Shown: piece by piece, positions 59,270 through 59,925 of the stretch
Layout: the number at the start of each line of letters is the position of its first letter
Numbering within the stretch: position 1 is the first letter of the stretch
Virus record (IMG/VR): IMGVR_UViG_3300045941_000223
Location: 13,255 to 77,254 of that record
DNA from: a virus
DNA: 64,000 nt
Reading direction: 5' to 3' (one strand)
Made by a program: the position numbers and the translations under genes
The notes under the pieces: generated by a model
The model's database searches: none
Told to the model about the DNA's origin: nothing
Seen by the model: the letters and a program-made list of their open reading frames with translations, nothing else

Positions 59270-59298
59270 TTCGACCTATAGGCCATTGCGCCCTCATT
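59270..59298 (+). promoter_or_regulatory. Degenerate plus-strand copy of the promoter/operator upstream of the Cys-peptide genes
   Basis: TTCGAC-N17-CTCATT containing TAGGCCATTGCGCCCTC (15/17 identical to the copy 1 operator). Confidence 0.6.
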
Positions 59299-59363
59299 TC
59301 TGCCGCATTGGTTGTGAAAGCATTGCTTGTTGGAACTTCAGCCCATGGAAAGGGGAGCAGGCG

Positions 59364-59495
59364 ATGCGTCGATTGATCTTGGCGACAATGGCGGTAGTGG
59401 CTTTCGGCACGGCAGCTTGGGCAGCGTGTCCGCCCGGGACGCGGTATTCGTGCGAGCAGAGCTTCAGCGGCAAGGTGATCTGTTCCTGCCGGTGA
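59364..59495 (+). CDS. Secreted 4-Cys mini-peptide 1
   Basis: SD AGGGGAG; MRRLILATMAVVAFGTAAWA|ACPPGTRYSCEQSFSGKVICSCR. Confidence 0.8.
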   Translation: MRRLILATMAVVAFGTAAWAACPPGTRYSCEQSFSGKVICSCR

Positions 59496-59533
59496 TCCGG
59501 CGCGAGCAGCAAAGACAACGGGAGAAGACCAGA

Positions 59534-59674
59534 ATGCGAGTCCGAATTCTCATTGCAGTGCTGGCCGTGATGGCGGCGATCGGCAGCTCGGTGGCATGGG
59601 CCAAGTGCCCGCCCGGTACCAGCTACTCGTGTTATCAGGGGTTCAACGGCAAGATGATCTGCGGATGCAGGTAG
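59534..59674 (+). CDS. Secreted 4-Cys mini-peptide 2 (paralog)
   Basis: SD GGGAG; MRVRILIAVLAVMAAIGSSVAWA|KCPPGTSYSCYQGFNGKMICGCR. Confidence 0.8.
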   Translation: MRVRILIAVLAVMAAIGSSVAWAKCPPGTSYSCYQGFNGKMICGCR

Positions 59675-59685
59675 TCGGGTCGAGT

Positions 59686-59925
59686 TCATTTGTGCCCACC
59701 GACTTTCGGGCCGCCTGCGGGCGGCCCTTTTTTCTCGCCGATCGGAATCACGTTGGCCTTCACCTTGTCTTTGATCTTGCGCCAATGGCGCATGGCGAGC
59801 TTGGCTCCGACCAGCCAGACGATCAGGTCGTCGATGTCCTGCTCGGAGTAGCAGTGGACCCACACCGCGGCGTTGGTCACGCCGGTTTCCTTGAAGTCGC
59901 ATCGCAGCTCGTTGATCACCATCAT
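59686..59925 (-). CDS. hypothetical protein
   Basis: MMVINELRCDF...; coupled. Confidence 0.5.
   Translation of the reverse strand: MMVINELRCDFKETGVTNAAVWVHCYSEQDIDDLIVWLVGAKLAMRHWRKIKDKVKANVIPIGEKKGPPAGGPKVGGHK
59708..59733 (+). terminator. Rho-independent terminator of the peptide unit
   Basis: GGGCCGCC-TGCG-GGCGGCCC followed by TTTTTT. Confidence 0.8.

Follow-up and report, generated by a model that had tools for sequence, protein, structure and literature searches.

A pair of phage-encoded four-cysteine mini-proteins with export signals belongs to a widespread, unnamed phage-linked family and may serve superinfection exclusion

Morons, of which bor and lom of lambda are examples under the definition of Hendrix and Juhala, are a known kind of phage gene, as are genes for small exported proteins rich in cysteine; large surveys have catalogued thousands of small phage gene families, and small phage genes mostly stay unannotated. 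Among phage products of the cell envelope, Spackle (gp61.3) of T4 is made early, carries a signal peptide and inhibits, in the periplasm, the tail lysozyme of a second, incoming phage (PMC7677548, PMC7650644), while Llp of T5 and Cor of phi80 and N15 are small lipoproteins, made early or expressed from the prophage, that block the phage's own receptor (PMC9586334); in a recent bacterial example, DNA entry is arrested by a periplasmic effector (PMC13128918). Here we describe pepA (59364-59495) and pepB (59534-59674), two neighbouring plus-strand genes of a phage of which we analysed 64,000 nucleotides (nt), called the window throughout (bases 13255-77254 of the 77,254-bp IMG/VR virus record IMGVR_UViG_3300045941_000223, rated 100% complete); all positions are those of the window unless stated. 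Each gene encodes a precursor with an export-type N-terminus and a four-cysteine mature part that is most likely 23 residues long, and the family to which both belong is unusually small, unusually widespread, found in temperate and apparently non-temperate phages, and has never been named.

We compared the pep products with the closest described systems. Like Spackle, they are phage-encoded and have a signal peptide, and in the role that we propose below they would also act early and in the periplasm; Spackle, however, is a helical protein of ~97 amino acids (aa), with no relation to pep in sequence or fold (pep has no Pfam or PHROG match). Llp and Cor resemble pep as small phage-made envelope proteins, but they are lipoproteins of ~60 aa or more without sequence similarity to pep, whereas pepB has no lipobox and the pep family shows an A-x-A pattern. 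As in phage morons, the pep cassette is an extra unit set among conserved genes; it runs opposite to them, has a terminator of its own and is found at varied sites in related phages. In contrast to morons, the gene belongs to an early operon in most family members, and an integrase is missing from some carriers. The four-cysteine mini-proteins of the YdcA family, from E. coli prophages, differ from pep in three ways: no Pfam or NCBIfam model of that family (or of the heat-stable enterotoxin families) matched pepA or pepB, the mature part of pep is about half the size, and the pep family is almost absent from cellular genomes. AimP of the arbitrium system, like pepA, is a phage-encoded 43-aa precursor with a signal peptide, but no AimR-like TPR gene lies within 2 kb of the pep genes (their neighbours of 69-180 aa have no such Pfam or PHROG match), the mature part of pep is a conserved 23-aa cysteine scaffold and not a variable hexapeptide, and the hosts are diderm. 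Finally, thanatin, tachyplesin and protegrin, two-disulfide beta-hairpin peptides of eukaryotic host defence, share with pep a length of ~20 residues and a cystine-stapled hairpin (predicted for pep, and a structural analogy only); a Foldseek search of the PDB with pep gave no significant match (best E = 2.6).

The pepA precursor has 43 aa (MRRLILATMAVVAFGTAAWAACPPGTRYSCEQSFSGKVICSCR), divided into a signal peptide of 20 aa (59364-59423; MRRLILATMAVVAFGTAAWA) and a mature peptide of 23 aa with four cysteines (59424-59492; ACPPGTRYSCEQSFSGKVICSCR; stop codon 59493-59495). That of pepB has 46 aa (MRVRILIAVLAVMAAIGSSVAWAKCPPGTSYSCYQGFNGKMICGCR), with a signal peptide of 23 aa (59534-59602; MRVRILIAVLAVMAAIGSSVAWA) and again a mature peptide of 23 aa with four cysteines (59603-59671; KCPPGTSYSCYQGFNGKMICGCR; stop codon 59672-59674). 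The cysteine spacing C-x7-C-x9-C-x-C is common to both. We delimited the genes from their translation and from the phase of the G+C content at third codon positions (GC3), together with the family alignment for pepA and the nearest relative (P0003) for pepB; the GC3 frame signal shifts to the correct phase over pepA and over pepB. Shine-Dalgarno-like sites read from the sequence lie 6 nt ahead of each ATG (GGGGAG at 59352-59357 for pepA and GGGAGAAG at 59520-59527 for pepB), and a terminator scan found an intrinsic terminator on the plus strand at 59708-59733 (an 8-bp all-GC stem and a 4-nt loop at 59708-59727, then TTTTTT), 34 bases past the pepB stop codon and within the 3' codons of the convergent gene g59686 (59686-59925, minus strand, 79 aa). 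Minus-strand genes flank the cassette on both sides in the open reading frame (ORF) list and in the GC3 frame plot. In that list pepA and pepB appear only as C-terminal tails of ORFs of 178 and 115 aa. An earlier note on this DNA had read the two genes from the letters, had warned that such longer ORFs mask them, and had claimed Shine-Dalgarno sites, a terminator and a stand-alone unit; re-translation of both ORFs returned its peptides, the signals and the masking are as it described, and the unit is supported and moron-like. Its further remark that these are the sole credible plus-strand genes of the accessory arm is plausible from GC3.

When 1.84 billion representative proteins were searched with a profile, 80 clusters reached E <= 1e-3, a Vineibacter terrae protein among their representatives. 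Nearly all clusters measure 41-62 aa and have the layout of a signal peptide followed by C-P-x-x-x-x-Y-x-C-x5-G-K-x-x-C-x-C-x, and the source annotations of the relatives all read 'hypothetical protein'. The 7/9/1 cysteine spacing is kept in ~134 of 151 distinct peptides; the 126 distinct mature peptides all share C2, C10, C20 and C22 and nearly all share P3, Y8, G16 and K17, and the loop positions vary. The family is under purifying selection: the ratio of non-synonymous to synonymous substitution rates (dN/dS, Nei-Gojobori) over the 23 mature codons is 0.1-0.3, with dS saturated in most pairs, and stands at 0.15 for pepA vs. pepB; two further copies (L006 and L007) differ by 7 synonymous and 0 non-synonymous changes, and pairs with a divergent Reyranella copy (L010) give 0.35-1.1. 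The homologous clusters, the selection and the invariant spacing establish that the genes are real, and the family alignment bears out the note's observation that the signal peptides have diverged while the cysteine scaffold is fixed. Of the peptides from other samples, the one nearest to pepA is identical to it at 18 of 23 positions and the one nearest to pepB (P0003) at 20 of 23, whereas pepA and pepB agree at 15 of 23; since each is nearer to peptides of other samples than to its partner, the pair goes back to an old duplication or to two separate acquisitions.

Three relatives (P0044, P0049 and P0078) are multi-domain proteins, two of them with two tandem four-cysteine units in one protein; one multi-domain relative, of 146 aa, has three such units and a lipobox-like LALAC ahead of the first cysteine. 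Tandem units within single proteins suggest that the unit acts as an independently folding module. Comparison with known families gave no family match in Pfam, NCBIfam, PHROGs (single proteins and a 45-member alignment) or PADLOC; at E <= 10, Pfam and NCBIfam yielded only DUF6520, at E = 0.15 and over the signal-peptide region alone. A sequence search of the PDB returned nothing, the best ESM Atlas score (0.81) was under the usable level, and tblastn of two members (P0002 and P0041) against 50,697 GenBank phage records, a search of low power for a conserved part of 23 aa, had no match at E <= 1. The pep motif was not found in print by a literature search.

We found the family to be phage-linked. 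Pattern scans of IMG/VR for three subfamilies gave 7, 13 and at least 81 loci (98 loci after de-duplication, one copy each), and a metagenome scan gave 77 further loci, 67 of them with a clean single copy; the family total is ~170 loci, from soil and freshwater samples and from carriers with a G+C content of 35-67%. Among the loci found, the tandem pair occurs only in the window. By comparison, 2 of 801 sampled Pseudomonadota genomes matched (the seed genome and one distant variant), as did 1 of 401 Alphaproteobacteria, and a scan of genome contigs with one narrow pattern found 1 true locus. These counts go against the caveat of the earlier note that such proteins are common in Hyphomicrobiales chromosomes, and the homolog search that it had called for turned up relatives that are phage-linked and uncharacterised. 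One carrier (L003) is a complete 88-kb genome with direct terminal repeats. In it, at 9966-10661 and ~600 bp from the right end, a hairpin with a T-run stands directly upstream of the Shine-Dalgarno site of the pep homolog, which is followed on the same strand by a 148-aa signal-peptide protein with a weak match to the Ig domain Big_9.

The gene context of the relatives points to the early region. An integrase lies ~1.5 kb from the pep gene in three carriers (L007-L009), and a CI-like repressor adjoins it in two others (L004 and L163), with Erf nearby. In the large subfamily whose members end in C-G-C-G, neighbour clustering revealed a recurrent layout: replication O-like, NinB and RusA genes occupy one strand, and the other carries small genes, Erf or a RecE-like exonuclease, SSB or a Mu-Gam-like gene, pep and then one to five small genes. 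The endolysin and holin genes close the late operon, and the pep operon is convergent with them, at a distance of 0.5-3.7 kb from pep. A set of IMG/VR carriers (L033-L112; 32-41 kb, G+C content 36-50%) forms a coherent group of small lambdoid-like phages with a common early-left operon, made up of Erf or RecE, SSB or Gam, and pep, that is convergent with the lysis cassette. Judged by these layouts, pep is primarily an early-operon gene, the last or nearly the last of an early recombination operon in most relatives, and the stand-alone cassette of the window is a derived arrangement. The gene also moves among phages. In two carriers (L136 and L193) it stands beside homologs of window genes that are located here at 14.7 kb and 44.2 kb, and homologs of g58729 (58729-58977, minus strand, 82 aa), the gene divergent from pepA, occur in 5 other viral contigs with no pep cassette nearby and no shared neighbours; for another flank gene, g59922, no relatives were found. 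Such relocations and such absences are as expected of a moron, and so are the terminator at 59708-59733 and the plus-strand orientation of the genes amid minus-strand genes.

Several features of the precursors speak for export. pepA starts with MRR and pepB with MRVR, and both c-regions end in AWA; the two sequences and the A-x-A pattern of the family agree with a Sec/signal peptidase I precursor, taken as a basic n-region, a hydrophobic h-region of 10-15 residues and small residues at -3 and -1 of the cleavage site (A-x-A). When residues are instead numbered from the first cysteine, position -4 is Ala in 89% of 151 members and -2 is Ala in 95%, -3 is variable (including W, F, Y, K and H, with Leu in 10 of the 151), and -1 is A, S or G in 90% and K, R, H, Q, D or T in 10%, including the Lys of pepB. 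The Ala residues at -4 and -2 read as the A-x-A site of signal peptidase I, with one residue left ahead of the first cysteine, and cleavage most likely falls after AWA. The earlier note's claim of exported cysteine mini-peptides is thus supported by the N-termini and by the family-wide pattern. AlphaFold2 (45-sequence alignment; mean predicted local distance difference test score of 81) models a signal helix at residues 2-17 and strands at 31-35 and 41-45. The mature peptide is accordingly predicted to be a beta-hairpin with its turn at the conserved Asn-Gly-Lys, and in the predicted register the second and third cysteines would lie opposite each other across the strands.

Our tentative reading, which as a whole and with its descriptive part included we would give somewhat less than an even chance, is that the two genes are old paralogs from a phage-specific, hitherto undescribed family of exported mini-proteins that serves superinfection exclusion or envelope protection. 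We rank this role first because early periplasmic phage proteins typically prevent secondary infection or tune lysis; of the functions that the earlier note had offered, a periplasmic exclusion or receptor-blocking role seems the most reasonable. The cassette, oppositely oriented and terminator-bounded in the architecture of a moron, would be transcribed independently of the surrounding early genes. Its precursors would be exported through Sec and cut by signal peptidase I after A-W-A, releasing into the periplasm a 23-residue peptide whose four invariant cysteines would form two disulfides around the Asn-Gly-Lys hairpin. Early in infection, and in the window phage possibly also in the lysogen, the peptide would then bind a target in the envelope or the periplasm. 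The occupied cell would be protected, in the manner of T4 Spackle or T5 Llp, by a block of the entry machinery, of the receptor or of a second phage's wall-degrading enzyme. Should a pep peptide indeed block an envelope machine or the entry of a phage, no smaller phage exclusion factor would be known, and a conserved target in the periplasm would have a natural peptide ligand. The family is compact, strongly constrained and widespread, its 23-residue scaffold is small enough for chemical synthesis, and the diverged tandem pair of the window phage amounts to a built-in comparison of specificity.

Several observations weigh against the exclusion role. Neither a tyrosine integrase nor a serine recombinase occurs in any of five checked relatives that have the layout of the C-G-C-G subfamily (97-100% complete, 37-41 kb), so that a lysogen-specific role is not the general function of the family, which is not purely a lysogenic-conversion function. 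Conservation of the peptide in phages whose hosts span 35-67% G+C content points either to a target that is itself very conserved or to a scaffold that is purely structural. With A, S or G at -1 in 90% of members, some of them may be lipidated, and the peptides may also be exported past the outer membrane. As to expression, two scans of the 386-bp divergent region between pepA and g58729 (58978-59363), a general sigma-70 scan and one with enterobacterial and alphaproteobacterial consensus sequences, found no sigma-70 promoter at 9/12 or better and gave 8/12 as the best match. The 'operator-bearing promoter' of the earlier note was therefore not recovered, and the pep promoter must lie within 58978-59363. 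Contigs from RNA libraries (X19-X22) cover almost the entire arm, with similar depth in 27 of the 30 bins into which 52000-64000 was divided, and give neither strand nor transcript ends nor level; they show presence in the RNA library, not specific transcription of pep.

A different early periplasmic function would be regulation of the phage's own lysis. In this alternative, which we consider unlikely, an antiholin-like peptide or endolysin modulator would set lysis timing by binding the periplasmic part of the holin or the secreted endolysin, or through redox chemistry of the C-G-C motif. The early gene RI of T4 also has a periplasmic product, the C-x-C motif is invariant in the pep family, and the gene of the C-G-C-G subfamily lies close to the convergent endolysin and holin. 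That proximity in small phages may merely mark where two operons converge, however, and the pep gene is always on the strand opposite the lysis genes, in a recombination operon, and 17 kb separate it from the endolysins of the window. We also considered an o-spanin (Rz1) and rejected it, given the same 17 kb in the window and, in the relatives, upstream genes that are SSB, Gam or Erf with the lysis genes on the other strand.

Just as unlikely, in our estimate, is a peptide that acts outside the cell after leaving through an outer-membrane channel or by lysis, whether as an antimicrobial hairpin, as a phage-phage signal or as a toxin that harms competitors or grazers. The size, the predicted two-disulfide hairpin architecture and the variable loop positions would suit such a peptide, and Sec-exported disulfide peptides of Gram-negative bacteria, heat-stable enterotoxins for example, can reach the medium and so offer a precedent. 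On the other hand, no immunity, exporter or receptor gene adjoins the pep genes (neighbours searched against Pfam, PHROG and PADLOC), there is no double-glycine leader, none of the enterotoxin families was matched in Pfam, and, unlike arbitrium codes, the mature sequence is kept between unrelated phages. An arbitrium-like signal is disfavoured by the missing receptor gene next to pep and by this conservation, and a class II microcin or bacteriocin was rejected on account of the Sec-type leader and of the lack of adjoining immunity or ABC-exporter genes. In a bolder version, to which we likewise assign a small chance, pep would be the first class of two-disulfide beta-hairpin peptides, diffusible or target-docking, that phages carry in diderms, working either extracellularly as an antimicrobial against competitors or a phage-phage signal or in the periplasm as a minimal inhibitor docked onto a conserved envelope machine or as a C-G-C redox mimic, and the tandem pair would represent two specificities.

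Slightly less probable than these is a tiny lipoprotein, in which signal peptidase II would cut before the first cysteine and leave a lipidated, membrane-anchored peptide of 22 residues that blocks a receptor as T5 Llp and phi80 Cor do. The small residue at -1 in 90% of members, with Ala at -2, would allow it, WAA|C of pepA fits the permissive PROSITE lipobox rule, and Llp and Cor are receptor-blocking precedents of this kind. The stricter lipobox [LVI][ASTVI][GAS]-C, however, is absent from pepB (W-A-K-C, with Lys at -1 as in the 10% of members that have K, R, H, Q, D or T there) and ambiguous in pepA (W-A-A-C); Leu at -3 is rare and is often replaced by W, Y, K or H, and lipidation would leave an odd number of free cysteines. 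The Ala at -4 in 89% of members is needed by an A-x-A site and not by a lipobox, and since neither this conserved Ala nor pepB is accounted for by a lipobox, we accept the 23-residue mature peptides and, with them, the periplasmic reading. Still more doubtful is a periplasmic peptide that benefits the host by handling a metal (Zn or Cu) or by thiol-disulfide redox activity. Four invariant cysteines including a terminal C-x-C would be in keeping with it, but the predicted cross-strand cysteine pair fits a disulfide, the sequence and the repeat listing showed no Zur- or Fur-like AT-rich box upstream of the pep genes, and members in the early operon of apparently non-temperate phages are hard to square with cargo for host fitness. 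That pepA and pepB are chance ORFs of an intergenic region, as their shortness and their appearance solely as tails of longer spurious ORFs might suggest, has next to no probability and is refuted by the conservation data (80 homologous clusters, ~170 loci, dN/dS well below 1 and fixed cysteine spacing), with the correct GC3 phase, the Shine-Dalgarno sites and the terminator also against it.

The region upstream of pepA is flat in GC3 over 58985-59345 and therefore non-coding. A repeat search found in it two plus-strand copies of a 35-nt element: copy 1 (59109-59143) is flanked by the inverted repeat AGAAGTGC/GCACTTCT, and copy 2 (59206-59240) begins with the 18 nt GAAGTGCCGATGCCATCG, which contain the 11-bp palindrome CGATGCCATCG. 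The 18-nt element at 59206-59223 has an identical plus-strand copy at 55222-55239 and a third, diverged copy at 59109-59126. Two identical 25-bp arm repeats, at 55143 and 55377, mark the region of the phage attachment site (attP), and the exact copy falls between them. Exact recurrence of an 18-mer across 4 kb is far beyond chance, which suggests that one DNA-binding protein acts at attP and in the upstream region. The element is thus a candidate site, at both places, for an Xis-like protein or for the arm-binding domain of the integrase, and what it controls may be the pep genes or the divergent xis-int operon. Its presence in attP and upstream of the cassette hints that the integration and excision machinery is linked to the neighbouring promoters.

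At the RNA level, one metatranscriptome contig covers 59329-60103 and includes the cassette, and the fold of the pep leader is not notable (z = -1.2). A plus-strand match to the Rfam family RF00519 (suhB; mmgR, alpha-r8) at 59660-59742 reached 30 bits against a gathering threshold of 41 (E = 2e-4). We rejected a suhB/mmgR small RNA at the 3' end of pepB, as the match is sub-threshold and its alignment rests mostly on the terminator hairpin; the C-rich loop motif that we take to belong to this family is not evident in the alignment of 59660-59742.

Distances from the pep pair are ~2.5 kb to xis-int and ~4 kb to the attP region; g58729 heads a leftward operon of small genes that ends in xis-int. 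The excisionase-type HTH_17 gene xis (56642-57007, minus strand) was identified with Pfam PF12728 (E = 1.4e-7) and the tyrosine integrase (55734-56804, minus strand) with PHROG 1 (E = 1.8e-42) and PF00589 (E = 1e-19); with this operon beside attP, the phage is temperate. The longest integrase ORF shares its first ~160 nt with the HTH_17 ORF, and because GC3 favours the xis frame there, the true start of the integrase is probably further downstream than that of the longest ORF. At least 18 soil DNA runs contain the phage, and 6 metatranscriptome runs contain parts of it. Two short metatranscriptome contigs (X21 and X22) match the window at 55287-55325 alone (39 nt) and are unlike it on both sides, a pattern that fits what an uninterrupted host tRNA (the bacterial attachment site, attB) would give.

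A MazG-like pyrophosphatase gene (60512-60853, minus strand; PHROG 229, E = 2.8e-7; Pfam scores of 26.2 and 21.1 bits, just under the cut-offs of 27 and 22) is alone within 57-62 kb in resembling cultured phages at the DNA level. These are Rhizobium phages, at 68-71% identity, which hints at an alphaproteobacterial host. Elsewhere in the window, the 15-nt motif TAGGGCGTGGTGGCC (with up to 3 mismatches) occurs at 18 sites vs. 2.3 expected, in 1063-7767 and 49010-57027. Plus-strand sites make up 15 of the 18, and the sites stand at junctions of minus-strand genes, sometimes in tandem 17 nt apart (examples are 6674-6688, 50963-50977, 53282-53296 and 53480-53494); the motif may be a phage-specific regulatory or processing site.

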